A DNA stretch of 40,000 bases from Patescibacteria group bacterium (GCA_035533975.1 DATLSU010000020.1:37181-77180); one strand, 5' to 3'. Counted from the first letter of the stretch, positions 2,448 through 38,684 are shown. Program-made: numbers and translations. Notes: a model not told the origin generated them from the letters alone.

Positions 2448-2480
2448 GGGATAGGAGATAGAGCCGCGCAAAACCGGCCC
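2448..2480 (+). repeat. Left terminal inverted repeat of casposon-like element
   Basis: gggataggagatagagccgcgcaaaaccggccc matches the reverse complement of 15762-15794 at 29 of 33 positions, the first 17 perfectly. Weaker similarity continues about 40 nt inward. Confidence 0.75.
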
Positions 2481-2558
2481 TCAACATGTCGTGGGTCGGC
2501 GGCTGGGCGGACGCAAGGGAGGAATTGCACTGGGCAAGCATGCGAGAAGTATGGTGCG

Positions 2559-2975
2559 TTATGGCAGAAAATAGCATGGAAATCGCATGCTTATTCCCAA
2601 CCGCTCTGGAAGTTGCATCCTCGTGACTTTTTCAATCACAGGTGGCAAGTCTATGTGGTAATTCTGGGACAGCTGAAACGCTGCTTCATTATAGAATTCA
2701 ACCACCTGAAAATTGCTACCGAATCTCCTCTCAAACGTGTTGTCATCATAAAATGCAAATGGATCAAGAAAATACACCTCGACCATCCCCTTAATCACCA
2801 ATCCGCGTTCAGCAGCACTCGCTAGCGGACCAAACCGTTGACGCAGCAACATCATAGTTTTCAGATTGTCTTCCGAAAGGCGCATGGTGCGATATTGCGC
2901 ACCGTTCAGGATGTCCTCACGAGTGAAACCTATGACAGAAAAAACATCTGCATTCTTAAACTCAGGTTCTGCCAT
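2559..2975 (-). CDS. Hypothetical protein, 138 aa, last gene of the leftward operon
   Basis: ATG start with GGGAG upstream. Lies 27 nt downstream of the HEPN gene on the same strand. No motif recognised. Confidence 0.55.
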   Translation of the reverse strand: MAEPEFKNADVFSVIGFTREDILNGAQYRTMRLSEDNLKTMMLLRQRFGPLASAAERGLVIKGMVEVYFLDPFAFYDDNTFERRFGSNFQVVEFYNEAAFQLSQNYHIDLPPVIEKVTRMQLPERLGISMRFPCYFLP

Positions 2976-3002
2976 TTGCTCTATACTCCCATGCGGCGAA
3001 TG

Positions 3003-3731
3003 TCAGTCAAGGTTTTCCCTAAGAAGACTATCTAAATCACTTTCATTTCGTAGGCGCTCCCCGGTTTCGGCATCTAAGGCTGCGAGAGACAATCTATTGA
3101 GTATTTCTTCCCGGTGATCTCTGCCGCGCAGGTAAAGCACAAAGAATCGAAGAATTGCCAGACGGATCGGAGAAGCCCACCGTTCGCATTCCTCATGTGT
3201 GACAAACTTGCCCTCAAGGTAAGGATCCACATCGTACTGGCCATGCACTAATTGACTTCTGCGTGAGTAGAACTTCTTTATTTCACGGAAAATGTTGGCT
3301 CTCTCTTCCGGTGTGGTTCCCACAAGCTGACTCACGCTCTGCGCAATGCGAAATGTGAATTCACTTTTGTCATTTGGCGAAAGTAGCGATTCGAGGGCAA
3401 TGGCTAAACTGATTAGTCTGTCGGCTGGCTTGTCCTGCGTGTGACTGAATTCAAAATAATCTCCGGCGCGATAACTGGACTGACGCAAGCTGCTACGGAG
3501 GTCGTTTATTCGATCAAGAAACTTCGGGTGCTGATATAGCGCCCACCAGCGGGTGACGGTATCTCGCTCATCTGCGTTAAGAGTGTAAAATCGACGACCG
3601 CCTTCATATGGGAAACGACGAGGATTCCCGATAAAGAAAACTCCCCACTTGCGGATTTGGTTGACCCATTCCGGCAGGAAGTGAGGCGCTGCATAATCAA
3701 TGTGAACTACTCCATCCTTGAAGTATTGCAA
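3003..3731 (-). CDS. HEPN domain protein (Apea/ApeA-like), probably the C-terminal part of a frameshifted ~470-aa gene
   Basis: LISLAIALESLL ... FRIAQSVSQLVG ... KKFYSRRSQLVHG contains the Rx4-6H HEPN motif in its usual helical context. The only start candidate is TTG, without an RBS. The frame opens directly at the A7 tract. Confidence 0.6.
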   Translation of the reverse strand: MQYFKDGVVHIDYAAPHFLPEWVNQIRKWGVFFIGNPRRFPYEGGRRFYTLNADERDTVTRWWALYQHPKFLDRINDLRSSLRQSSYRAGDYFEFSHTQDKPADRLISLAIALESLLSPNDKSEFTFRIAQSVSQLVGTTPEERANIFREIKKFYSRRSQLVHGQYDVDPYLEGKFVTHEECERWASPIRLAILRFFVLYLRGRDHREEILNRLSLAALDAETGERLRNESDLDSLLRENLD

Positions 3732-4420
3732 CGCGTGGAGGAAAAGCTCGGCCTTGTTTTTTTCTCAAATAGCCACTTGACGGGCTCTTCACACGGCCCT
3801 TCCTGTTCCGAGACGATGAAAAACTCACCCGTGCCAGGGGGATTGAAGAAGGATACCGCAGAGGTCTCGCCGAGTATTTTTGAGATGGTAGGGCCGCCGA
3901 GGCGCTCCATCCTCACGTCTCCGAATTTCAGACTCGGTTCTTCGGCATGAAAGTTGAACACGTGACACAGTGATATTGCCTTGAAGCGTCCCTCCCCATA
4001 AATGGTGGCATCAAATCGCTGAAAGAGTTCCTCCAATCTCTCCTGGGGTGCACCGTCGTTGATCAGCAATGCAGCAGGACTCACAAACCCGACATCGAGA
4101 CAGTGAGCGAGGGGACCGAGACCAACACAACATTCTCTTAATTGCCTATCTTGAGCCAATATATCCGAAAGCGTTGTCCGCACTCGGTCACCCTCGAATC
4201 CGGCAGTGGAGAATTGTCCGCGCCTAGTCTCCAGGAACTTGGCTTGTTCCGCATCAGCAGGCTCCATGACCCAAGGGAAAGCGAGATACAGAAATGGCGA
4301 GGCGGCATCTGGAATGATTGTTTCTGTCCGCGTTTTGATGGTTGCCACCACGCGTGCCTGCGCGATGAGAAATTCTTTCAATTGTGAGTATTTCTCGGGG
4401 GTTGTATTAGTTGTGGACAT
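3707..4420 (-). CDS. Hypothetical protein, probable N-terminal part of the HEPN (ApeA-like) gene
   Basis: ATG start 50 nt downstream of the PolB stop. The ORF overlaps the HEPN ORF by 25 nt in another frame. Its tail after the A7 tract (TRPSFSSTRCNTSRME) looks like out-of-frame read-out. Confidence 0.55.
   Translation of the reverse strand: MSTTNTTPEKYSQLKEFLIAQARVVATIKTRTETIIPDAASPFLYLAFPWVMEPADAEQAKFLETRRGQFSTAGFEGDRVRTTLSDILAQDRQLRECCVGLGPLAHCLDVGFVSPAALLINDGAPQERLEELFQRFDATIYGEGRFKAISLCHVFNFHAEEPSLKFGDVRMERLGGPTISKILGETSAVSFFNPPGTGEFFIVSEQEGPCEEPVKWLFEKKTRPSFSSTRCNTSRME
3757..3763 (-). other. A7 homopolymer (minus strand GAG AAA AAA ACA) at the junction of the two ORFs; candidate -1 frameshift site or indel
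   Basis: In the -1 frame a TGA lies immediately 5' of the tract. After the tract that frame reads NKAELFLHALQYFKDG and continues into the HEPN ORF. Confidence 0.5.
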
Positions 4421-4470
4421 AGCATCACATTTCCTAACTTAAGATGAAAAGCCCAGCGCCGTATTCTACA

Positions 4471-7400
4471 TCAAGACTGGTTTATGGGCGTGTGTCCAGT
4501 TCTTCCCACTATATCGATGAGGCGCATCCGGTGTGATCGACGCGGCCTGCTCCGCGCGGCCCTGATCTCTTTCAGCGCACTCGGTGACATACCACTCTTT
4601 TTCACGAGGACCGACAGCGGTATTTTCTTCAACGCGGGCAGGATTGTCATTTGCCACTCATCCCGCTTGGGGTCCGGGTATTCGGTGTAAACCCCGCGCT
4701 CATCGTGAATCAGCCCGGCTTCTACATCTTCCAGACGGTTCGATTCTTTGCCGATACACTCGATGTGCTCAATTCGAATATGCCTTCGATACAACAGGCC
4801 AACGGTTTGTTTGACACAGGGGTTTCCGTTTGCATCGGCGCATTTTGATTCCGGGTGAAACTCGTATTCCTGCAAAACGTCGCCGTAGGTTTTGACGCGA
4901 GCGCAGTGCCTGGCGCCGTGGTGCCCTGCCGTTGTGATCCCGAATTCATTTCCCGAGTACAGGTCAGTCCAATCCATGCGCATCCATTTCATTGGATTTG
5001 ATTCGTATGGTGCGATGAGATGAAATCGTGCAGGGTCCACACCGACGGGATGGCCCAGGGGACTGATGTGGCACGTCAAAAGAAAATTGAACGGTTTGAT
5101 TTGGTCGCTGTATTTCTTGCTCTTGTTGAGCCGGGCAAAGGACCGCATAACGGTGGGGCTACTGATCGTCACGCGCCCCACGGCAGGTGATCCCTCGAAT
5201 CCCATTTTCCCCGTGCTCATGCCGAGCGAACGGCGCACGATGTTAAGCCACGCCTGCCTGATCCAGTCCCGGTCTTCACTCTCGGGATCGGTCGGATTCA
5301 ACAGATGCCCGAGGCCATGCTCTGACCATCGAAGCAACACAGGTTCACCCCCGCCATCCTGCAGAAAGAGTGCGTATCGTTTGGCTGAAATTGCCAAGCA
5401 GTACAGCTGCCGCTGACGACCAGTTTTCGGATCGAAATTGTCATCTTCTATTTTGAGAACGGACCCCGGCACTGCGCTGCGGTCGTAAGGGTTGAGCGCA
5501 GCGAAGCTCTCAGCAATCTCTCTCACTTGTGCCCATGACAAGGCCTTGATGGCTTCGCGGCCATCCTGCATCTGATACGGTCCACCAGGACATGGCACAA
5601 GTCCTCCATGCTCAGTGACCACAATCGCCATTGAATCTGTATCCTCCATCGCGTTCGTGCCACCCAATTCAGTGACTGAGTGTTCCAATAAGGCCAACAT
5701 GAGACGTGCCGCGCCTGTAATCAGCGAAGCGAGTGGAGGGAAGCAATATTCGCCCGGCACCTCTGGGTGAGCGACACGGCAGGCGAAGGGGTCTGCGTCA
5801 ATCCCGTGGCACGTCACGTTTGACTCTCGGTCAGCTTCTTGGCGGTTCATCTCCGCATAGATTCCATAGCTGGTCGAATTCGCGAGGACTTTTAGCGCTT
5901 TATCGAGCCGTCTTTTCTCAATGTCGGTGAGGTCGGAACGTGATGACAAGTGTTTCCGTTCCTCGATTACGACTCTGAAAAAATCCTCACGTCTGGGATC
6001 GACTTCGATAGCACCACGCAGCTTCACAGGCGCGAGGCCTGGAAGCGTACCTTGAGGCTCCATACGGAAGGCATCGACAATTTTGGGTATGCGCCCGGTC
6101 AAAAGCACAGACGCGACAACATCCGGGAGTGAGAACCACAACGCCACGCTGTCCTCGCTGCCCTTGGCGTAGAGATGATTGATGCCAATCTGCCAATCGT
6201 TGCCTCCTGTGCCGTATCTCGCCCGCGTCGGCAAAATATCCCCATTCGGAATGACTTTCACGAACGCAGGCAAGCGTAGCCACGTCTCGGGCTTGAAAAG
6301 ATCGGCAGGCTTCAAATGTCTTAGGAATTCCTCAATTTCACTTTGGCAGTGCTCGACAACCTTAACCTCGTTCGCTATGACGTATTGCCAAAGCCCCATG
6401 AGGCTGTTGACCGTGGGATACATCGAAAGAAAATCCACGTATACAACCGGAACCGGCACTTTGCGGATGTGGGCGCTGGCACGTCCACCGAAGAAAGCAG
6501 ACTGTGCGTATCCCAAATATTTCCTGGGAAAATCTGGCTGTCTTTCAAGGATGGGGATGATCCCCATGGCCCGCAGGTATGCCTTCCCGATGGAAGCAGG
6601 AGAATACGCCCTTGTGGCCTGAAGACTGATCGGATGTTTTTGATACTCTTCGATCAGCTTGCACGCCAATTCAGATGTTGCCAGAACGTCGCGCCGGTTG
6701 TAATCGATGTATTCCTCAGTGACTTCTCCGTGATGGTTTGTTTTCTGCTTTCCATGTGCGACACCGAACGCCTCGCACGCAGATTCCAGAGAATAGCCCC
6801 GGTCGGTTAGTGCAAATGCGAGTGTGCGCAAATCCAGCAAGTGACCGCGAAATTTATATCCCGGTTCAGGCTGACCGCTCGGCGATCCTTCGGGGATCAT
6901 ATCGGTCCGGTCCGCATTGTTCCGTGCTGTGAACCCCTTCAACGCACGCTTGCTATCGATCTGCTTGATGCCGATTCTGGGCCGGAAGTGATTTGTTCTT
7001 TGTCGCCCGTTCTTGTCCGTGTATTGCCACATGCCAAGTGAAAAGCCGCCAGCGAATCGGCCCCGCGCCGGTGCACAATCGTGGGCGATTCGCGACAGGT
7101 CAAACGGCTGATTGAAGGCAACGACAAGACATCGGCCTTTGTATGCAGCGAAATAAAGCACGTCCAGGAACTCGTTCAGGGATAACAAGCGCAGTTCCGG
7201 TCTGCCTTCCTGACACGTCTCGGCTCGGTGCGTTGCAACGTAGCGTTCCAGGATTTCGCGTTCCTTCGCTGGCAGTTCATCGGCGTATAAAAGTCCCTCT
7301 TCCAAGCATTCCCCGTTTACGAAAAACCGATAGCTTCCAAACGTCAAGCGTTGGGTGGGGTCGGTGCGTGTTTCTGTGTCGAAGACAAGCATTGCGGAAG

Positions 7401-7503
7401 GCAATTCGGGTGCCTGCTGTTTTCTGTTACTCCCTTTCGCGTCCGGTGGCTCCGGGTAAACGCGAACGGCAATAGGTAGCGATATTGGCTGATGAATCGA
7501 CAT
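4471..7503 (-). CDS. Family B DNA polymerase with 3'-5' exonuclease domain, 1010 aa
   Basis: ExoI MLVFDTET (D42, E44). ExoII NQPFDLSRI. ExoIII YIDYNRRDVLAT. Motif A DFLSMYPTVN. Motif B KVLANSTSYGIYAE. Motif C AMEDTDSMAIV. KxY-like AISAKRYALF. Confidence 0.9.
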   Translation of the reverse strand: MSIHQPISLPIAVRVYPEPPDAKGSNRKQQAPELPSAMLVFDTETRTDPTQRLTFGSYRFFVNGECLEEGLLYADELPAKEREILERYVATHRAETCQEGRPELRLLSLNEFLDVLYFAAYKGRCLVVAFNQPFDLSRIAHDCAPARGRFAGGFSLGMWQYTDKNGRQRTNHFRPRIGIKQIDSKRALKGFTARNNADRTDMIPEGSPSGQPEPGYKFRGHLLDLRTLAFALTDRGYSLESACEAFGVAHGKQKTNHHGEVTEEYIDYNRRDVLATSELACKLIEEYQKHPISLQATRAYSPASIGKAYLRAMGIIPILERQPDFPRKYLGYAQSAFFGGRASAHIRKVPVPVVYVDFLSMYPTVNSLMGLWQYVIANEVKVVEHCQSEIEEFLRHLKPADLFKPETWLRLPAFVKVIPNGDILPTRARYGTGGNDWQIGINHLYAKGSEDSVALWFSLPDVVASVLLTGRIPKIVDAFRMEPQGTLPGLAPVKLRGAIEVDPRREDFFRVVIEERKHLSSRSDLTDIEKRRLDKALKVLANSTSYGIYAEMNRQEADRESNVTCHGIDADPFACRVAHPEVPGEYCFPPLASLITGAARLMLALLEHSVTELGGTNAMEDTDSMAIVVTEHGGLVPCPGGPYQMQDGREAIKALSWAQVREIAESFAALNPYDRSAVPGSVLKIEDDNFDPKTGRQRQLYCLAISAKRYALFLQDGGGEPVLLRWSEHGLGHLLNPTDPESEDRDWIRQAWLNIVRRSLGMSTGKMGFEGSPAVGRVTISSPTVMRSFARLNKSKKYSDQIKPFNFLLTCHISPLGHPVGVDPARFHLIAPYESNPMKWMRMDWTDLYSGNEFGITTAGHHGARHCARVKTYGDVLQEYEFHPESKCADANGNPCVKQTVGLLYRRHIRIEHIECIGKESNRLEDVEAGLIHDERGVYTEYPDPKRDEWQMTILPALKKIPLSVLVKKSGMSPSALKEIRAARSRPRRSHRMRLIDIVGRTGHTPINQS

Positions 7504-7507
7504 TCGC

Positions 7508-8008
7508 TTAACGCCTGGGTGTGAATTTTCTTAGGTCAGTCTTCTCCCACCATCCCGGCCCGTGCTGTTCAACCATCGATGCGTTATACGTTTCAAGCAT
7601 GTTTGCAATCCGAAGGAGCAATTCCTTCATGAGATAAACGAGAGTGTCTACAAAGCCCCGGATGGACGCGGCTGCCGCAAGCACCGGATTTCCGTCCGGG
7701 TTTTCCAGAGTGTCTTTTGGCCAGTCGTGTTGGGCTGGGCTCAGGACCGCACGGTGATCATTGACCGGCACGGGGACGGTCGCATTGCTATTCGACTTGC
7801 CCGCGACGTGGTGCGCATCGCATATGCTCTTCCCCTGCCCCTTCCGCTGGCAGGCTGCGCAGATGGTGGGGTTGCTTCCCTTTATGAGTGCTTCCGGTCG
7901 GCTCTCACCGCACGCGCATTTCTTGCCCGCTCCGATCCGCCGCGCCGCACTAGCTTTGCGCTGGTATTTTCTGATTGGATTACGCGGTGGTGGTTCCTTC
8001 GGCATCAT
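7508..8008 (-). CDS. HNH-type nuclease, 166 aa
   Basis: CACG...CAAC cysteine pairs followed by DAHHVAGKSNSNATVPVPVNDHR (an HH...N...H pattern). Start ATGATG overlaps the upstream stop (ATGA). Stop lies 4 nt before the PolB ATG. Confidence 0.6.
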   Translation of the reverse strand: MMPKEPPPRNPIRKYQRKASAARRIGAGKKCACGESRPEALIKGSNPTICAACQRKGQGKSICDAHHVAGKSNSNATVPVPVNDHRAVLSPAQHDWPKDTLENPDGNPVLAAAASIRGFVDTLVYLMKELLLRIANMLETYNASMVEQHGPGWWEKTDLRKFTPRR

Positions 8009-8550
8009 GCAACCCCCGCATAGAGAGATTCGAACGACAAAGCGCCAGCCGACGCCAGTCGGTCCAGAACTTCCAGATCGGTCAGCAGTGGGATTCGCTT
8101 TCGGCTGGCGTCCATGATGCGCTTCTTCCTGAATTTCTCCAGAGCTGACGCATCCCCCGTTTGCAGATATTTCTGAACGGCTGCCCAATACTGACCAAGA
8201 CGGCTCGCCTGCCGAGAATCGCGAAGGGCAATTTCTCTCACCCCCTCAGGGGAAGGAATGGTGAGGACCCGAAGCAGCGTATCAGTGGGTCTTGCTGCGT
8301 ACCGCCCATTGCGGCCCTTGCGCAAGGCAGGCTTGGCCCAGCGGATCACCGTGCGCGGACCAAGACCAAATTCCTGGGACGCCTGTGTGAGCGACACCCC
8401 GTCGGCTCGCATCTTTGAGACCGCGTGGGTGATGCGGTTCCAGCGGTCTTGGGATCGGGCAGGCATGGCGGAAAATTGCTTTAGAGTTCGCGGTGCTACA
8501 AGCCGAATTCTCGTTGACCGACGTTTGCGATTTTTTCTTTTTGCTTTCAT
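8005..8550 (-). CDS. HTH DNA-binding protein with basic N-terminus, first gene of the leftward operon
   Basis: MKAKRKNRKRR basic tail. HTH-like segment VSLTQASQEFGLGPRTVIRW. Start set at the internal ATG 8550. Confidence 0.6.
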   Translation of the reverse strand: MKAKRKNRKRRSTRIRLVAPRTLKQFSAMPARSQDRWNRITHAVSKMRADGVSLTQASQEFGLGPRTVIRWAKPALRKGRNGRYAARPTDTLLRVLTIPSPEGVREIALRDSRQASRLGQYWAAVQKYLQTGDASALEKFRKKRIMDASRKRIPLLTDLEVLDRLASAGALSFESLYAGVA

Positions 8551-8607
8551 GCAGACAGGTTTTCGCGAACGCGAGGTAAACTCAATCAAGCGTCATTGTA
8601 TTTGGGG

Positions 8608-9399
8608 ATGAAATTGTCGCAACCTAATGAAAACAAAAGCCGAGGCAGACCGAGAAAAACTACCGATGAAGAACTTTTACGCTACGAGGGACTTTGGGTT
8701 GACACTTTCACTGGCCTGCGCGACGGCACCTCTGAGGCTGAAACCGTCGTTCCCGCCAGATCGGGCATGTTTGTCAAATCGAGCGGGGGAGAACGCGAAC
8801 GGGTGTATTCACACGTTCCGGGCGAAGCCCCGCGCGTTGTGCATGAGCCAAGGTTTTCCACCACTCCCGACGAGAAGCGGCGTTGGACACTTCGCAAACA
8901 AGAAGAGGAAAAGCAGTTTGAAAAGACCATCCTGACGCCGCATGTTGACATTGCTCCAGCCATTCCCGATGAACGCAGCTTATGGGAAGCACTGAAGCGA
9001 GCACAGACAGCTGCTCAGGTCCGGAGAATTTGCAGTCGATCCAAAATATGGCTGAGGCCTCGAAGAATTGAGTTTCCGGACGGCGGTTTCGTGGAGTGGT
9101 GGGCCTTTCGGAGAGTCTTGTACCAAAGAGCGCAGGAATTTTGCCGAGCGAAACTCGACCCCCGGTATCCTGGGCGGGACCAGAGGGCATCGGGAGACTA
9201 CCGGAGAATCGAATATTTCGCTCGTGTGCTGTCAGGCCTAACCGTTGGGCTTGCGCCATCAACCGCCGTGGAGCGACTTAGAAGAATGCGGCATCCGGGA
9301 GAATGCGGGTGTTGGCGCTGCTTCCTGGGGATCGGCTCACAGTACGGTAAGAGCTTGGTACAACTTTTGTGCGAGCGCGGCCCCGCATGGCGAATATAA
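8608..9399 (+). CDS. Hypothetical protein, 263 aa, first gene of the rightward arm
   Basis: Long ORF divergent from the HTH gene. Basic N-terminus SRGRPRKTTDEE and C-terminal CGCWRC. No family recognised. Confidence 0.55.
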   Translation: MKLSQPNENKSRGRPRKTTDEELLRYEGLWVDTFTGLRDGTSEAETVVPARSGMFVKSSGGERERVYSHVPGEAPRVVHEPRFSTTPDEKRRWTLRKQEEEKQFEKTILTPHVDIAPAIPDERSLWEALKRAQTAAQVRRICSRSKIWLRPRRIEFPDGGFVEWWAFRRVLYQRAQEFCRAKLDPRYPGRDQRASGDYRRIEYFARVLSGLTVGLAPSTAVERLRRMRHPGECGCWRCFLGIGSQYGKSLVQLLCERGPAWRI

Positions 9400-9446
9400 G
9401 CGTTGTTCACTCAAGCAAAGAAAGGTTGACTGATACCTCTAAATAG

Positions 9447-9460
9447 ACTACATATGTAGT
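9447..9460. promoter_or_regulatory. Perfect 14-bp palindrome actacatatgtagt, candidate operator
   Basis: Self-complementary 14-mer abutting the GTG start of the Xis-like HTH gene. TTGACT lies at 9425-9430 upstream. Confidence 0.4.
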
Positions 9461-9682
9461 GTGAGTATACGCTTAACGACAGTCGAAACCGCTACGAAAA
9501 CGGGTCTCAATCGTGTCACCCTTCAGGAGTGGATTCGAACGGGCCGAGTGAAGGCTCCAAAGCTGGTGCTCCGCAACGGTAGGGCGGTGCGCCTCTGGTC
9601 TCAATCTGACATAGAGAGTTTGCAGCGGGTGAAGGCAGAAATCTACCGCAAAGGTAGAGGACGGAAGAAAAGCAAAGCATGA
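9461..9682 (+). CDS. Excisionase/MerR-superfamily small HTH protein, 73 aa
   Basis: LTTVETATKTGLNRVTLQEWIRTGRVKAPKL...RLWSQSDIESL matches the HTH_17/Xis-type pattern. GTG start. Confidence 0.65.
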   Translation: MSIRLTTVETATKTGLNRVTLQEWIRTGRVKAPKLVLRNGRAVRLWSQSDIESLQRVKAEIYRKGRGRKKSKA

Positions 9683-9751
9683 CAGAGCAGGACGCGCCGG
9701 TGCAGCAGCACCGGACGCGCCCCTAACCACCAAAGGAGGCGTCACACTCCA

Positions 9752-11392
9752 ATGGCAGCTACGCAGACGTTACCGCAGGTCCCGCAGGTCGGCAATTTCG
9801 AGGTTCCATCCTCAACCCCACCGGAACTCGGCATTTCAAAGAGCCAAACCGTAGAAGTGCTCACGCCAAGACGCGGTGTGGTTACTCTTTTTGGTTACGG
9901 GATCAGGGTCCGCGTGGATCGGGGCCACCTGATTCTTGAGGACGGGATCGGTGCTGCCCGTCGCGCGGGACGCTTCTCCCGCGTGAGGCATGGGCTAAAG
10001 CGTGTGGTTGCCATCGGGTCGGATGGCATGGTTTCGCTTGCGGCGCTCCGCTGGTTGGCTGACCAGGACGCGGCCTTTGCGATGCTCGACCGTAACGGCT
10101 CAGTGCTTGCCGTGACCGGCCCCGTTCGCCCCTCTGATGCCCGCTTGAGACGCGCTCAGGCTCTTGCAGTGCAATCCGGAACCGGCCTGCGAATTGCGCG
10201 ACAATTGGTGAATCAGAAAGTCGCTGCCCAGGAGCGGCTGGCCAGCGATGGCCTGCAAGCCCCGGCTGTTGCGCAAACGATTCGCGAAGCTCGGTCTGCA
10301 TTGGCTTCGGCTGCGACGATTGATTCCCTTCGCGCACAGGAAGCGCAGGCAGCCCACGCTTATTGGTCCGCATGGCGCAACATCCCGCTCACCTTTCCTA
10401 AGCAGGATGCCCGCCGCGTGCCGGATCACTGGCTGACTTTCGGGACGCGCATTTCTCCGCTTTCGGGTTCCCCCCGCCTTGCCGCCAATCCGGCTAATGC
10501 CATCCTGAATTACCTGTATGCCATCCTCGAAACGGAAGCCCGGCTTGCCGTTGCAGCACTTGGCCTCGATCCCGGTCTTGGCGTTATGCACCTCGATAGC
10601 CGGACACGCGACAGCTTGGCTTGCGATTTGATGGAACCGATCCGGCCACAGGTGGACGCCTATTTGCTCGAATGGATCACCCGCGAGGCATTCCGCCGGG
10701 AGTGGTTTTTTGAAGAGCGCAACGGCAACTGCCGCCTCATGGCTTCACTCGCTACCCAGTTGGCCGAAACCGGGCCGACTTGGGCAATGGCCGTTGCGCC
10801 CCTGGCGGAATGGGTGTCCCACACGCTGTGGAGAAGCATCTCCAAGTCAGTTCGCCGAAATTCGCCAGCAACAAGGCTCACCCAGTCTCACAAGCGCGGG
10901 GCCAAAGGAGCGACTCTCATGCCACCAGCCAAGCCCCTGCCCAGGCCTCCAGCTGTTTGCCGGGATTGCGGTGCCCCAATCAAACCAGGCCGGAATTACT
11001 GCGCTTTCTGCGGAGTTGTTTTTTCGAGGGCGGGTCTCATAGAGGCTGCAAAGCTCGGGCGAGCGGCCGGGCACAGCCCAGAGGCGCGTGCCCGCCAAGC
11101 TAAGAAGCAACGCCGCAATGCCGCTGCACTGAAGAGGTGGAATCCCACGGAGCAACCCGAGTGGCTGACGGAAAATTTCTATCGCGAAGAGATTCAGCCG
11201 CATCTTGCGGGTGTCACCGTACCGGCCATTGCTTCCGCCCTTGGCCTTTCCCAGCCTTACGCGGCGAGGATTCGGGCCGGTAAACAGTGCCCTCATCCAA
11301 GACATTGGCAAGCGTTGGCGCGGCTAGCAGGAGCTTCGCGGGATCGGAAGACACATCTTCAATGGTCGGCAAGCCGAATCGGAAGCCTATAG
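9752..11392 (+). CDS. cas1: Cas1 homolog (putative casposase) with C-terminal zinc ribbon and HTH, 546 aa
   Basis: NAILNYLYAILETEARLAVAALGLDPGLGVMHLDSRTRDSLACDLMEPIRPQVD carries the Cas1 catalytic E, H and D/E positions. CRDCGAPIKPGRNYCAFCG (10958-11014) is a CxxC...CxxC ribbon. VPAIASALGLSQPYAARIRAG is HTH-like. Confidence 0.9.
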   Translation: MAATQTLPQVPQVGNFEVPSSTPPELGISKSQTVEVLTPRRGVVTLFGYGIRVRVDRGHLILEDGIGAARRAGRFSRVRHGLKRVVAIGSDGMVSLAALRWLADQDAAFAMLDRNGSVLAVTGPVRPSDARLRRAQALAVQSGTGLRIARQLVNQKVAAQERLASDGLQAPAVAQTIREARSALASAATIDSLRAQEAQAAHAYWSAWRNIPLTFPKQDARRVPDHWLTFGTRISPLSGSPRLAANPANAILNYLYAILETEARLAVAALGLDPGLGVMHLDSRTRDSLACDLMEPIRPQVDAYLLEWITREAFRREWFFEERNGNCRLMASLATQLAETGPTWAMAVAPLAEWVSHTLWRSISKSVRRNSPATRLTQSHKRGAKGATLMPPAKPLPRPPAVCRDCGAPIKPGRNYCAFCGVVFSRAGLIEAAKLGRAAGHSPEARARQAKKQRRNAAALKRWNPTEQPEWLTENFYREEIQPHLAGVTVPAIASALGLSQPYAARIRAGKQCPHPRHWQALARLAGASRDRKTHLQWSASRIGSL

Positions 11393-11728
11393 CATCGAAG
11401 ACCCCCTATCTCGATCACGGCTGGACGCCTTCGCATTCCGCTCATTCTTCAGTAATTAAACAAGTGTTGTCGGAAAACAAAAGTTTTCTGTGGAAACTAT
11501 TTTCTAATGTTATTTCACTGGACGAAGGTCTTGTCATCCTGAAATACTTTTTCAGGACATAGAAAGTAGGTGGCAGGCAGCCAATTCAGGTGTCTCCCCT
11601 CCGCAGCGACTCAAGGAAACACGTCTTCCGATGGAAGGCGGGTTTCCAAATGAATTCCGTTTGTGATGGTGAGGGTCATGCCGCTGGCAGACTGCCCATT
11701 GCTGCAACTACCGGCTTGAGGAGAACAA

Positions 11729-11941
11729 ATGCCGAGAAGAAACTTGGAATCTCAAATCGTGCGGCTCCGACAGGAAATCGAAAGGCTCTCTGCTGAGCAC
11801 GCGGAGAAGATGAAGCAACAATCGAGCACAGCGAATGCCAAGCTGCGCGCAGCAGAGGCGAAGCGAGCCGAAATCCTGGCTCGCCGCATACGTCAACTGA
11901 ATGAGATGCTGGACGCCCTTCAGCGTGCGCAGTCAAATTGA
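11729..11941 (+). CDS. Small coiled-coil protein, 70 aa
   Basis: Heptad-like charged sequence LESQIVRLRQEIERLSAEHAEKMKQQ...LNEMLDALQRAQ. ATG start. Confidence 0.45.
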   Translation: MPRRNLESQIVRLRQEIERLSAEHAEKMKQQSSTANAKLRAAEAKRAEILARRIRQLNEMLDALQRAQSN

Positions 11942-12081
11942 GTGCTTGCCCACACGGGAAGCACGATCAAAAATGACGTCGAACACCCACCGGGACAGTG
12001 AATGAACTATCGAACCGAACGATGGTGCAATATATGAGTTCCGGTCGACTGAGCACCGATCCGTTCCCTGCCCCCTCTGGC

Positions 12082-12369
12082 CTACCCCAGGTCGAGAAGC
12101 GCAGCTTCGGCCCTAAGGCTTTCCAGAGTGTCTCGCAGGAGTTTCCTCGACTCTACACCGAACGATTTGGCCACAGCCTCAACGTCCTCCATGATCCAAG
12201 CCGCCGAGATGTCTACCGCCTCAGAAGGAGCAGCTTCACCATCGCCGCAGGTCTTCACTTGCCGTTTCGAAACGGTTAAGCGGAGCGAGCTCCCCCGTTC
12301 ATTACTACGCATGAGGGCCACCTTTGTACAAGAATTGTTCCGAGATGGAGACAAGAACATGTTTGGCAC
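12082..12369 (-). CDS. Hypothetical small protein, divergent from the XRE gene (strand assignment uncertain)
   Basis: A 95-aa ORF. A competing 150-aa ORF on the plus strand (12128-12580) covers the same DNA and cannot be excluded by eye. Confidence 0.3.
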   Translation of the reverse strand: MPNMFLSPSRNNSCTKVALMRSNERGSSLRLTVSKRQVKTCGDGEAAPSEAVDISAAWIMEDVEAVAKSFGVESRKLLRDTLESLRAEAALLDLG

Positions 12370-12591
12370 GCTATCACTTTTCGCCTGGAATGCTGAGAGC
12401 TATACCCGTGGGAAAGTGGCGACCTTGCCAAGTGCCTTTGGAGTAAACGTTCCAGCAGTGACGTTCGACTCAATAGCACGAAAGTGCCATGGATTGCGCC
12501 ATGTCCCGAACCTCCGCGTACTGGGCTGGCAATACCTTCAAGTTATAATGCTCTTGCTTTGCTCTGTAGCTCCGCGATAATCGTTTTCATT

Positions 12592-12945
12592 ATGATCATT
12601 GGCGAACGCATTAGAACCTTGAGGGAACTGAAGGGGCTCTCGCAGGGCGATATCGAGAAACGCAGCGGCCTGTTGAGATGCTACATTTCCCGCGTCGAAA
12701 ACGGTCACACCTCGCCGTCACTGGAAACCCTGGAGAAGTTCTCACGGGGGCTCGAAGTACCCCTACATGAACTGTTCTATGAGGGCGAGGAAGCTCCGGT
12801 TTTGTCTTCGCTAACCGCTGAAGACATCACCTTGCAGCCAAATAGCGGCCCGTCACTGCACCGACTCGCGGAACTGTTCAGAGGGTTGGGTCAGCAGGAC
12901 CGCCAGATCGTGCTTCAGACAGCCGAGCGGTTAAGCAAGATTTAG
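12592..12945 (+). CDS. XRE-family HTH transcriptional regulator, 117 aa
   Basis: IGERIRTLRELKGLSQGDIEKRSGLLRCYISRVENGHTSPSLETLEKFSRGLEV is a canonical Cro/C1 HTH. Start set at ATG 12592. Confidence 0.85.
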   Translation: MIIGERIRTLRELKGLSQGDIEKRSGLLRCYISRVENGHTSPSLETLEKFSRGLEVPLHELFYEGEEAPVLSSLTAEDITLQPNSGPSLHRLAELFRGLGQQDRQIVLQTAERLSKI

Positions 12946-13022
12946 CTTGTGCTGGCGCAGGTATGCTAGTGGGCTTGCAAGCTGACAGGGTGTTCCCAGC
13001 CCCCAAATCGAGCAAGGAAAGA

Positions 13023-13535
13023 CTACTCGCAAGCTCTCCCATAAGCCGGACGATCCCCTGCGTCTTCGGCCTGTGCCTGTGTCATGTATTCGCCGTGCTT
13101 CGTGGTCCCATACCACCTCGTGCCGGGGCAATGATAGACGCCCGAGGACGTATTGACCCAAACCTTTACGTTGGGATTGCCTTGATGCTCAGTCTTACCC
13201 GTTGTGCTCCCATGCTTCTTGGACGTGTTGGGCGAGGCAGACTCGCCTCCGCCCGACTGACAGGTTCTTCCGTATGCGGGGCGGTAACCCTTTTGTTGGG
13301 CCTCACCCTGCGCCATGTATTCGCCGCTCTTTGTTGCCCCATACCACCTCGTGCCAGGGCAGTGGTAAACCCCAGAATGTGTGTTGACCCAGACCTTGAT
13401 CTTGGAATTGTCCTGACTCTGTGAATGAGAGCGAGCTGTGTCCGACAACCCGTGCGGAATAGTGTTGGCTGGAACAGATGCCGGGACGAACAGCAAGGCC
13501 ACGATGAGGCCAATGGTTGCCAGCAGCCGACGCAT
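13023..13535 (-). CDS. Secreted protein with two tandem ~55-aa Cys-containing repeats
   Basis: Signal peptide MRRLLATIGLIVALLFVPASVPA. AAGGAGG lies 5 nt upstream of ATG 13535. Repeat KVWVNTxSGVYHCPGTRWYGxTKxGEYMxQxxAxxxGxRPAYGRxC occurs twice. Confidence 0.8.
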   Translation of the reverse strand: MRRLLATIGLIVALLFVPASVPANTIPHGLSDTARSHSQSQDNSKIKVWVNTHSGVYHCPGTRWYGATKSGEYMAQGEAQQKGYRPAYGRTCQSGGGESASPNTSKKHGSTTGKTEHQGNPNVKVWVNTSSGVYHCPGTRWYGTTKHGEYMTQAQAEDAGDRPAYGRACE

Positions 13536-13869
13536 AGCCACCTCCTTGTGATCTAAGAAAAGACCCCTGGGGCTAGAGAACCTTTTAACACCAATCGCGA
13601 GGTGTGGAACACATAAAGGTGATTTTGTTTTCTCAGGAAAGACCGGCGCAGGATCGATCCGAGATGCCCCTTCCTATCGGGTTAGATTGAATCGTTCGAG
13701 TGCGGGAATAGCGGTTAATCCTTGCGACATAATCCATTGGAAACGAACGTGTCGCGTCGTAGCATATCTGCCAACGGACGCTGTTGATGTACAGGGGGGC
13801 GCATCCTGGAAACGTGCGGCCTTCTTTCTCCTGCTGCGGCCTGAATGGCCAGGAGGGTAACAACCCCAA

Positions 13870-14178
13870 ATGACGAAAGAGCAATTGGGCGAAAGCCTCA
13901 GGTCGAGGCTGGCTCAGAAATGCACGCGCGGAGAAATGGACGGGAATCTGCCCAGTGGCAGGGAGTCTTTCTCGGAAAACCTGAAGAACACGAACGATGA
14001 CAACCTGATAGTTGGCTTCCTGAAGTGCGCCGTATGCGGTCAGATGAGCATGTCAGTGGAAGAAGCCGTGCGGTTCGCAGGGCATTGCGAAACCGCTGAT
14101 GATTGGGTCAGGTTCCTGGTTGGTTGGCAACAGCAGTTCGGTTGGTGTTGTCACGACATCGGCAAGCCGAATTGCTAG
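13870..14178 (+). CDS. Hypothetical Cys-rich protein, 102 aa
   Basis: ATG-initiated ORF in an AT-richer region. CAVCG and HCE/WCCH cysteine/histidine clusters. No family recognised. Confidence 0.4.
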   Translation: MTKEQLGESLRSRLAQKCTRGEMDGNLPSGRESFSENLKNTNDDNLIVGFLKCAVCGQMSMSVEEAVRFAGHCETADDWVRFLVGWQQQFGWCCHDIGKPNC

Positions 14179-14417
14179 GGGTACCCAGAGACATTGGGAG
14201 CCTATTGCACGGCGTTTTTCACTTAGGCCGGAGTTAACTCCTAGTCAACAGGTACCTCACATCAAGGCAAAGTCTCCGGCTCCGGAAACGTTGTATTCCC
14301 CCGAAACGAGAAATAGGTGAAAACAATACCTACATTGGTGATAGGGGTGTATAAGATATGCGTTGCCAGTGTTAATGGATGTCGGCCTTGAAAGTTCGGC
14401 CGAAAGGAGTACTGAGA

Positions 14418-15239
14418 ATGAAACACACATGGAGAATTGCACTCGCTTTGCTGTTGGGAGCGAGCACGGTGATGGCGCAGAATCCGGTGACGACGCCTGC
14501 GCCGGAACCCAAGCCAGCAGCGACTCCTGGGATCGTTCTGCAAGACGGCACGCCCGTGAAGCTCCGGTTGACTGAAACTATCTCGTCGGCAAGCGCTCAC
14601 GTAAACGACACCGTTCCCTTTGAAGTACTGGAGCAGATCAAGGTAGGCGGTCTCCTCGTCATCCCCAAAGGCAGCATGGCCTGGGGCACAGTGACCGAGG
14701 CGCAGCATAAACGGAGACTTGGCCGGGCAGGAAAACTCAACATCAGCGTTGTCGCCGTAAGGTTGCAGGACGGCGAAAAAGCCGCGCTCCGCGCCGTCAA
14801 GGATGTCAAAGGCGGCGGCCACCAAGGAGCGATAACGGGGGCAATCGTTGCGACAAGCATTGTATTTTTCCCGGTGGCCCCTCTGTTTCTTCTAATTCAT
14901 GGCAAAGATATAACCATCCCGCAAGGTACCGAAATTACGGCGTACATAAACGGGGACATGCCAATTGATCCGTCTAAATTCGGTGCGACGAATGCACCAG
15001 CGAATGCCGTAGCCAGCCCTGAGACCGTCCTGATTCAATCTGTGCCTACGGGAGCGGACATAACGATTGACGGTAACTATGCGGGGAGTACACCCTCGAC
15101 CCTGAAGCTCGGTCCTGGCCAGCACACAATTATTGTCAGCAAGTCCGGGTTCAAGCCTTGGCAGCGTACACTCAGCACTGAACCCGGCGCAAATGTCACT
15201 GTTGGCGCGACGTTGCAGGAGGACCAGAAAAAACAGTAA
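14418..15239 (+). CDS. Secreted PEGA-domain protein
   Basis: AAGGAG RBS before ATG 14418. Signal peptide MKHTWRIALALLLGASTVMAQ. C-terminal IQSVPTGADITIDGNYAGSTPSTLKLGPGQHTIIVSKSGFKPW is PEGA-like. Confidence 0.8.
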   Translation: MKHTWRIALALLLGASTVMAQNPVTTPAPEPKPAATPGIVLQDGTPVKLRLTETISSASAHVNDTVPFEVLEQIKVGGLLVIPKGSMAWGTVTEAQHKRRLGRAGKLNISVVAVRLQDGEKAALRAVKDVKGGGHQGAITGAIVATSIVFFPVAPLFLLIHGKDITIPQGTEITAYINGDMPIDPSKFGATNAPANAVASPETVLIQSVPTGADITIDGNYAGSTPSTLKLGPGQHTIIVSKSGFKPWQRTLSTEPGANVTVGATLQEDQKKQ

Positions 15240-15761
15240 AGAAAGGCTGTTGCATAACGCCCAACGAATCAGCCGCACGACAATATCGCGCCCGGCGTCG
15301 GTTCGACGGTGGAGTCTCGCGGAGGGAAAGAAAATTCCGCACTTGAAAATCCCGTGGAAGAACCGCCGGGACTGAGGGGAGGGCAAACGCGGTACGTTCC
15401 CTACAAGGTCGAGGCTACCTGTCGCCCGGAGTCCCCGGAGTTGGGTGCAGGGTAGAGGCGGGCTGGCTGGGCCGCAGCCTCTTTCTTCTATCATAGGAGT
15501 AATCTCGGAAGCCTTAGCTCCCGTCAATAGCTCGCGAGCTTTGTCAGACAGACCGCCACCCTCGCCCAATAGGTCTGCTAGCTTGAAATCTGCCATCGCA
15601 CACTGCGTGGTCGCTTTCAGCAGGTCCAGCAGAACGGCATTTTCCCCCGCGAGCACCCTTGAGCCTGCCACCCATGCCTCCCCCCCCCAGTGCGCGCACG
15701 GCCCAGGCCACACCAATGAGTGCCCTTGTGCCCACCCTCGCCTCAACCACAAGCCGTAGGG

Positions 15762-15794
15762 GGGCCGGTTTTGGCGCGCTCTATCTCCTATCCC
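15762..15794 (-). repeat. Right terminal inverted repeat of casposon-like element
   Basis: The reverse complement reads gggataggagatagagcgcgccaaaaccggccc. It matches 2448-2480 at 29/33 positions. Confidence 0.75.
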
Positions 15795-15808
15795 GTCAAC
15801 GCGAGCAG
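15795..15808. repeat. Right target-site duplication, gtcaacgcgagcag
   Basis: Perfect direct copy of 2434-2447. Confidence 0.75.
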
Positions 15809-38607: not shown

Positions 38608-38684
38608 CGGGACGTGGCGCAGCCTGGTAGCGCGCACGCTTGGGGTGCGTGAGGTCGCTGGTTCAAATCCAGTCGTCCCGACCA
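38608..38684 (+). tRNA. tRNA-Pro (anticodon GGG), CCA encoded
   Basis: Manually folded cloverleaf. Acceptor CGGGACG/CGTCCCG, D stem GCGC/GCGC, anticodon stem CACGC/GCGTG with loop TTGGGGT, T arm GCTGG-TTCAAAT-CCAGT, discriminator A plus CCA. Confidence 0.9.

Follow-up and report, generated by a model that had tools for sequence, protein, structure and literature searches.

Split gene at a run of seven adenines

A gene for a HEPN-type protein that is interrupted exactly at a run of seven adenines (A7) raises the question of what the interruption is. It could be a programmed -1 frameshift, a phase switch, or the mark of a fresh pseudogene. Such a gene lies at 3003-4420 on the minus strand of a 40,000-nucleotide (nt) stretch of DNA deposited as Patescibacteria group bacterium (GCA_035533975.1 DATLSU010000020.1:37181-77180), hereafter the window, in which it is the terminal cargo of a casposon. 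An earlier note on this DNA had proposed all three options for an ApeA-like gene. The analysis described here favours the last of them: programmed frameshifting is unsupported, and an ordinary recent loss-of-function mutation fits best, with a probability of roughly 0.75. The parts of the gene are as follows (aa, amino acids; ORF, open reading frame).

3003..4420, minus strand: whole disrupted gene of an ApeA-like HEPN family; one base added near 3764 gives a 472-aa ORF.
3707..4420, minus strand: upstream ORF of 237 aa with an ATG start; the exact protein is encoded on 8 public contigs.
3003..3731, minus strand: downstream ORF of 242 aa with a TTG start, corresponding to residues 231-472; a separate protein in the NCBI and Logan annotation.
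3757..3763, minus strand: A7 tract at the frame break; junction TTT GAG AAA AAA ACA on the coding strand.
3243..3260, minus strand: HEPN catalytic motif R388-S-Q-L-V-H393, with R388 at 3258-3260 and H393 at 3243-3245.
3390..3392, minus strand: conserved glutamate E344 of the LAIALE helix (the acidic residue of HEPN helix 2), aligned to LWIAIES of Ec2ApeA.

The two minus-strand ORFs (4420..3707 and 3731..3003) share a 25-nt overlap, and the junction and the A7 tract were found where the earlier note had placed them. The tract is the sole A/T homopolymer of at least seven bases within the 40-kb window. After ancestral residues 1-220 the upstream ORF continues with lysine 221, still in register, and then with 16 out-of-frame residues (TRPSFSSTRCNTSRME) as its tail; it contains the helical N domain and part of the alpha/beta middle domain. 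The remaining middle domain and the HEPN domain, with the sequence YSRRSQLVHG, are encoded by the downstream ORF, the frame of which is open from 3764. In the -1 frame a TGA at 3765-3767 stands immediately before the A-run and is followed by EKNKAELFLHALQYFKDG, which leads into the second ORF. The one-base deficit sits within A7 or immediately 5′ of it, the window reading TTTGAG-AAAAAAAC. The downstream frame contains no ATG and no GTG, and its earliest start-type codon is the TTG at 3731. Upstream of this TTG (GAGCTTTTCCTCCACGCG / CTTTTCCTCCACGCG) neither a purine-rich Shine-Dalgarno sequence nor a ribosome-binding site was found, in agreement with the earlier reading of this ORF.

The two ORFs are halves of one ancestral gene

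Both ORFs are halves of one ancestral gene of ~472 aa. A similarity search with the joined protein, close in length to the ~470 aa that had been predicted, returned 44 relatives, mostly of 473-480 aa and with 95-100% query coverage. These relatives cross the junction in one frame, typically as W-[LI]-F-E-E-K-N-K-A-E-L-F...LQYFKDG, and none of the homologues compared consists of two genes that each have a start. The joined protein was modelled with AlphaFold2 using the homologue alignment, which gave one compact fold (pLDDT 93, pTM 0.88) with a helical N domain at ~14-142, an alpha/beta middle domain at 147-281 and a helical C domain at 283-472. The frame break corresponds to residues 219-221 and lies within a modelled helix, 213-234; the split is therefore not at a domain linker.

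These results bear directly on a functional split, in which each half would be produced on its own and the two would join as an active two-subunit enzyme. Two proteins are indeed annotated by NCBI and Logan, and residues 200-265 contain several of the other disruptions known in the family. However, a break inside a helix of a compact fold, a downstream frame with TTG as its only start and no ribosome-binding site, and the single-ORF organisation of the homologues make such an enzyme scarcely credible. The clustering of disruptions at residues 200-265 was considered as a sign of working halves and was rejected, because nonsense codons and truncations also occur at residues 51, ~210 and ~285-297 and because detection is biased towards mid-gene breaks.

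At E<=1e-10 a profile search for the family collected 913 representative proteins, and at E<=0.001 it collected 8,502. Its members so far are mostly from Acidobacteriota, and all eight genome matches are Acidobacteriota metagenome-assembled genomes. Homologues outside casposons are located in chromosomal regions, two of them adjoining transposases. In an exhaustive profile search the best 150 matches listed were all family members or fragments thereof; when ten of the weakest among those 150 were compared with Pfam, a faint hint of HEPN_RiboL-PSP was seen and nothing else. A second word-indexed search, with the C-domain profile, gave no relatives with a Pfam annotation. The first similarity search, also word-indexed, missed the window's own half-proteins (P0045/P0046 and P0047) although they are in the collection. 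A near-identical intact allele is hence not excludable by that search, and its negatives need care.

The A7 allele is genuine and probably recent

The A7 allele is genuine and no accident of assembly, the tract length being known from assembled contigs. Three of the 8 public contigs that encode the exact 237-aa product were read, and each is 100% identical to the window and carries A7: ENA ERZ27256814 (k141, MEGAHIT-style) and the Logan assemblies of SRR8554483 and SRR8554501. The split N-terminal protein is recorded by JGI, and both split products are recorded by NCBI. The exact joined proteins, in their A8 or A5 versions, are absent from a collection of 15 billion proteins.

The earlier note had allowed for an assembly error, that is, a systematic homopolymer error by which one base was dropped from a gene that is truly intact. 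Some platforms do make frequent errors in homopolymers, and nothing else is wrong with the gene. A 7-nt run, however, is well within short-read accuracy. The identical tract in three independent assemblies, one MEGAHIT-style and two of separate SRA runs, and the split proteins recorded by JGI and NCBI make this explanation very unlikely.

The same contigs are informative about phase variation, in which replication slippage would toggle the tract between A7 (OFF) and A8 (ON), so that a subpopulation expresses the defence gene. A homopolymer does stand at the break, and homopolymer-length phase variation is known in defence genes, such as the G-tract of pglX in the Streptomyces Pgl system and the Type III mod genes. 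But the single allele in all assemblies, which come from separate runs or assemblers, argues against a switch, and the exact ON-state protein is missing from the protein collection. Seven bases are also short for high-rate switching, and, judged against the closest relative (locus L058, described below), the base may have been lost outside the run (GAAG to GAG). A7/A8 variation may occur, but it is considered distinctly unlikely as the explanation of this gene.

The age of the break was judged from the conserved columns of the alignment. The window protein is off the consensus at 4 of 92 columns conserved at >=90%, and the closer intact homologues (P0001-P0031) are off at 0-6. Its departures are within the intact range, which indicates that the break is recent. 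The break is a genuine, recent mutation and is apparently fixed. An excess of lineage-specific changes in a relative-rate comparison (42 in the window protein vs 15 in P0001) was considered as a decay signal and was rejected, since intact homologues are equally asymmetric when compared with P0001.

Programmed frameshifting is not supported

The DNA of 8 genomic loci, 46 metagenomic loci and three contigs of the closest homologues was compared at the junction. None of ~50 homologue loci has a frameshift at the tract, and the longest A-run at this site among 50 loci is 5. The closest relative, P0001 of locus L058 (66% identity), is an intact protein of 474 aa. Its junction reads TTT GAA GAA AAA AAC AAA (TTTGAAGAAAAAAAC) and contains the same A7 in frame. 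The tract is thus older than the break, and selection for slippage does not account for it. Judged from this comparison, the ancestral reading is most likely F-E-E-K-N-K.

Elements that stimulate frameshifting were also sought. A 131-nt RNA around the site folds no better than its shuffles (z=-0.2), there is no Rfam match around the site, and no Shine-Dalgarno-like or GGAGG-like stimulator is visible upstream of the tract. Scans for promoters and terminators, Rfam families and tRNAs around the gene were uninformative. Known -1 frameshift and slippage sites include A AAA AAG of dnaX, A AAA AAA/G of the IS3 family and A/T runs that support transcriptional slippage. The window resembles them in having a lysine-codon A-run exactly at the frame junction, where a -1 shift restores the ancestral reading. 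It differs from them in that the shift is unconserved, that neither a stem-loop or pseudoknot stimulator nor an upstream Shine-Dalgarno-like element is present, and that the A-run is read as G AAA AAA, not as A AAA AAA/G.

Disruption of genes of this family is common, and it is not confined to the tract. Thirteen of 44 non-redundant homologue loci (~30%) are disrupted in other ways:

L026, L038, L042, L047/49/50 and L052: other frameshifts.
L012, L029, L005/31 and L048: nonsense codons.
L006:10368-11716: 1.4-kb insertion.
L004, L040 and L045: internal truncations.

One of these frameshifts recurs in three separate ENA assemblies (L047, L049 and L050).

Recoding would require that some ribosomes slip -1 on G AAA AAA, or that RNA polymerase adds an A on A7, to give a low and safe dose of a full-length toxic ribonuclease, whether fortuitously or by selection. 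Compatible with this are the position of A7 exactly at the junction, the product of a -1 shift (...FEKKNKAELF..., matching the frame of the homologues) and the lack of other damage in either half. Over-expression of ApeA-type proteins is toxic (bioRxiv 10.64898/2026.01.26.701840), which makes a limitation of dose plausible. The comparative evidence points the other way: the frameshift is unique to the window lineage, the tract is older than the break and is in frame in the closest intact relative, no stimulatory structure or upstream element accompanies it, and other members of the family are broken at random places. Seven A's are, in addition, a short run for transcriptional slippage to be efficient. 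Ribosomes may slip -1 on G AAA AAA at a low level, or slippage may occur during transcription, but recoding as the explanation of the locus is unlikely.

HEPN domain and its relation to ApeA

The earlier note had associated the joined protein with single-gene ApeA-type anti-phage proteins on account of its size, its layout and its C-terminal motif. HEPN domains are defined by an Rx4-6H motif with a polar residue after the R (PMC3710099), and the joined protein has R388-S-Q-L-V-H393. R388 and H393 (RRSxLVHG) are invariant in all aligned relatives (alignments A2 and A3), distant ones included, and S389 is >=90% conserved. E344 (LAIALE) is likewise conserved, distant relatives included. In the AlphaFold2 model, helix 371-392 ends at the motif, E344 is in helix 332-347, and an inserted helix (355-367) lies between them. 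As modelled, the motif at the end of a long helix and the acidic residue in the preceding core helix correspond to the published description of the HEPN fold (PMC3710099), in which helix 3 of a four-helix core ends with the motif and helix 2 carries the acidic residue.

When the C-domain profile A2 was compared with all PDB sequences, the top three matches were Ec2ApeA (E=0.0016). The alignment pairs LAIALEaLfsp with LWIAIESLIPD and YdrRskLvHg with YRTRNLIVHTG, so that R388 aligns to the catalytic R502 and H393 to H507 of Ec2ApeA (R502-x4-H507). The chain of the R502A mutant gave an E-value ~75-fold worse. R502 is essential for ApeA defence, which is abolished by its mutation (bioRxiv 10.64898/2026.01.26.701840). 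Profile A3, built from more distant relatives, matched only Ec2ApeA (E=0.0022) and Ec3ApeA in the PDB; the Ec3ApeA match had E=0.034 with A3 and ranged across profiles from 0.034 to 0.1. The full-length profile A1 gave a chance coiled-coil match only and no ApeA among PDB sequences, and the N-domain profile A4 gave nothing there, ApeA included. A search for ApeA homologues with a 73-aa segment of Ec2ApeA, intended for profile-profile comparison, found none.

In the ApeA monomer a helical N domain is followed by an alpha/beta Mid domain and then by a HEPN domain that is split (bioRxiv 10.64898/2026.01.26.701840). As a defence family, ApeA is characterised by N-terminal and Mid domains that form a ligand pocket and by anti-phage protection in which the anticodon loop of tRNA is cleaved. 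Like ApeA (Ec1/Ec2ApeA; PDB 9HXI, 9HXD, 9HXB), the window gene would form a single-gene system. The same order is seen in the model of its protein, where the C-terminal HEPN domain, which contains insertions, comes after helical N and alpha/beta middle domains. The E...Rx4H residues are co-linear with those of Ec2ApeA, and ApeA is the only PDB family found by the two domain profiles. Unlike ApeA, the window protein is ~120 aa shorter (472 vs 593), its gene is frameshifted, and the N domain of its family has no detectable similarity to ApeA and has an invariant D91/C98 motif of its own.

This N-terminal motif, DxHLxECC, occupies residues 91-98 (window 4126-4150, minus strand); D91 and C98 are invariant and C97 is near-invariant across 29 diverse relatives, and a possible function of the motif is the binding of a metal or ligand. 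In the C-terminal ORF (3003-3731, minus strand), residues 113-169, which span the HEPN motifs, match the phage protein family phrog_28161 (E=1.6e-5), indicating that phages encode relatives of the HEPN-spanning domain. Weak PADLOC matches to BrxA are given by seven of the 45 family members in alignment A1 (best E=4e-4), the window protein giving none.

Proposed fate of the gene

When intact, the gene would encode a protein of ~472 aa in which a helical N domain and an alpha/beta middle domain precede a HEPN ribonuclease domain at the C terminus, the last being a remote relative of the HEPN domain of ApeA. By analogy with ApeA, the protein would most likely act as a single-protein abortive-infection ribonuclease triggered by phage infection. 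A deletion of one base in or just before A7 would have shifted the frame within a helix of the fold, so that the cell would make at most the 237-aa N-terminal fragment. The HEPN half, having no usable start codon, would be effectively silent, and the present allele would be OFF. The loss appears to be recent and of a kind that often hits costly toxin-type defence genes. On this reading it is a loss of function of a kind common in this gene family, and the ~30% of broken copies fits a costly, frequently lost toxin-type gene.

Several observations weigh against this interpretation, some against the loss of function and others against the assignment to ApeA. The tract is a near-canonical -1 slippery sequence, with G AAA AAA in register and a shift-prone tRNA-Lys, and hence some full-length protein could still arise. 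The gene is undamaged except for one base, which would fit a functional recoded gene as well. A7 is the allele in the assemblies, and minority A8 alleles may accompany it. The ribonuclease activity, which in HEPN proteins is metal-independent, and the toxicity and anti-phage function of the family are predictions from its sequences. The link to ApeA is weak (E ~2e-3) and limited to the HEPN domain. The searches suggested in the earlier note, with the HEPN_Apea hidden Markov model and a defence-system classifier, returned no match: Pfam HEPN_Apea, PADLOC ApeA and NCBIfam gave zero matches for the joined protein (E<=0.1) or for 45 family members (E<=1; E<=10 for P0001 and P0007). Foldseek comparison of the full-length and C-domain models with the PDB gave nothing significant.

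The failure of the curated models confines the link to ApeA to remote homology of the HEPN domain. The sequence comparisons lead to the conclusion that the gene encodes a HEPN protein with an ApeA-like layout and with a catalytic domain that is a remote homologue of HEPN_ApeA; its membership of the curated ApeA family is not demonstrated. Of the association made in the earlier note, the HEPN domain and the similar layout stand, while no relation of the N domain to ApeA was detected by profile. Three homologues, P0001, P0007 and P0020, are named 'Apea-like HEPN' by JGI, and the curated models miss all three. A family of ~475-aa proteins that is missed by curated ApeA models yet keeps the ApeA catalytic residues would extend the known sequence range of ApeA-like defence proteins.

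The best, non-significant Foldseek matches of the C-domain model (E>1) were 3o10 (probability 0.57, TMt 0.49), 8xdj, 8yuf and 8xeh. Minimal HEPN toxins (HepT of HepT-MntA) and the HEPN domain of sacsin are among these weak matches, and they share with the C domain a helical bundle, a long helix that ends in Rx4H and an acidic residue upstream of this motif. In contrast to HepT-MntA, the window gene has no adjacent MNT antitoxin gene, and its protein is much larger, with two extra domains.

The frameshift itself, read as a recent loss of function, is an ordinary inactivating mutation. A more far-reaching version of the slippage idea combines the tract with the mobile element: slippage on A7 would keep a toxic ribonuclease reversibly OFF, or at a very low dose, on an acidobacterial casposon lineage that shuttles anti-phage genes. 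If true, an abortive-infection toxin gated by slippage would be travelling on a mobile element. This reading is very unlikely.

Casposon and its cargo

The earlier assignment of the gene to a casposon was borne out by terminal inverted repeats (TIRs), a perfect target-site duplication (TSD), Cas1 and a polymerase. The disrupted gene is the terminal cargo of this element, the features of which are listed below (HTH, helix-turn-helix).

2448..15791, no strand: casposon of 13.3 kb, with Cas1 and a family-B polymerase between the TIRs and flanked by the TSD.
2448-2480 and 15759-15791: 33-nt TIRs (TIR-L and TIR-R).
2431-2447 and 15792-15808: perfect 17-nt TSD CCCGTCAACGCGAGCAG.
2559..2975, minus strand: 138-aa ORF between the disrupted gene and the left TIR; lineage-specific cargo.
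4471..7503, minus strand: family-B DNA polymerase, directly upstream of the disrupted gene and on the same strand.
9752..11392, plus strand: casposase, consisting of Cas1 with a C-terminal zinc ribbon and HTH (PF01867, E=4e-42).
12484-12945 and 14379-15239, plus strand: further cargo; the first encodes an HTH_3 regulator similar to control proteins of defence systems (PADLOC HTH_VI, capH and control_protein, E down to 9e-14), the second a PEGA-domain protein.

The GC content of the casposon is 47-58%, vs 61-65% in the flanks. The polymerase gave 24.9 bits with DNA_pol_B_2, just under the Pfam cut-off of 25.8, and is 60-65% identical to the polymerases of L022 and L058. A 42-nt inverted repeat reported by a repeat finder was resolved into the 33-nt TIRs and part of the 17-nt TSD. 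In the favoured reading the casposon is a recent insertion, and the genome is that of a soil bacterium, probably a member of the Acidobacteriota.

The earlier note had suggested the 138-aa ORF as a partner or antidote of the HEPN protein. This was not upheld: the ORF has no Pfam, PADLOC or PHROG match, and with tblastn no homologue was found in 57 other related loci (the window's own contigs L055-L057 excepted).

Two related casposons carry a gene of the same family. In the casposon of L022 (polymerase 60% and Cas1 51% identical) an ApeA-like gene 3′ of Cas1 is unbroken as far as the contig end, which cuts it short. In that of L058 (polymerase 65% and Cas1 58% identical) an intact ApeA-like gene (L058:10001-11425) is the last before the terminus, and the terminus shares 14 nt, ...CTATCTCCTATCCC, with the window casposon. 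The intact homologue in L058 is adjoined by a fused, full-length PARIS AriAB (L058:7719-9770, minus strand; PADLOC PDLC02981, E=1.6e-156), which makes the terminal cargo of this casposon lineage look like a small defence island.

With its Cas1 casposase bearing an HTH, its family-B polymerase, TIRs and TSD, the window element resembles the known casposons, the self-synthesising transposons built on Cas1-solo and PolB. Its TSD of 17 nt is similar in length to that reported for the A. boonei casposase (15 bp). It differs from them in that its host is apparently a member of the Acidobacteriota; a full-text literature search for casposons and Acidobacteria gave just two papers, and in neither does the title or abstract contain one of the terms. 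A second difference is that the cargo includes defence-type genes, ApeA-like in the window and both ApeA-like and PARIS AriAB in L058. A set of 48 reference casposons was reported to be poorer in defence genes than pipolins (PMC11551731). The finding that related casposons carry an ApeA-like gene, and in one case PARIS too, as terminal cargo concerns elements that had been regarded as defence-poor.

The casposon of the window has an M61 peptidase gene on one side and a YceI-family gene on the other. It is not inserted at a tRNA gene; the window has a single tRNA, a tRNA-Pro at 38608-38684. In L058, Cas1 is frameshifted at L058:7504-7507, just before the C-terminal HTH region (tblastn frame 2 to frame 1), and that element may be immobile despite its intact cargo.

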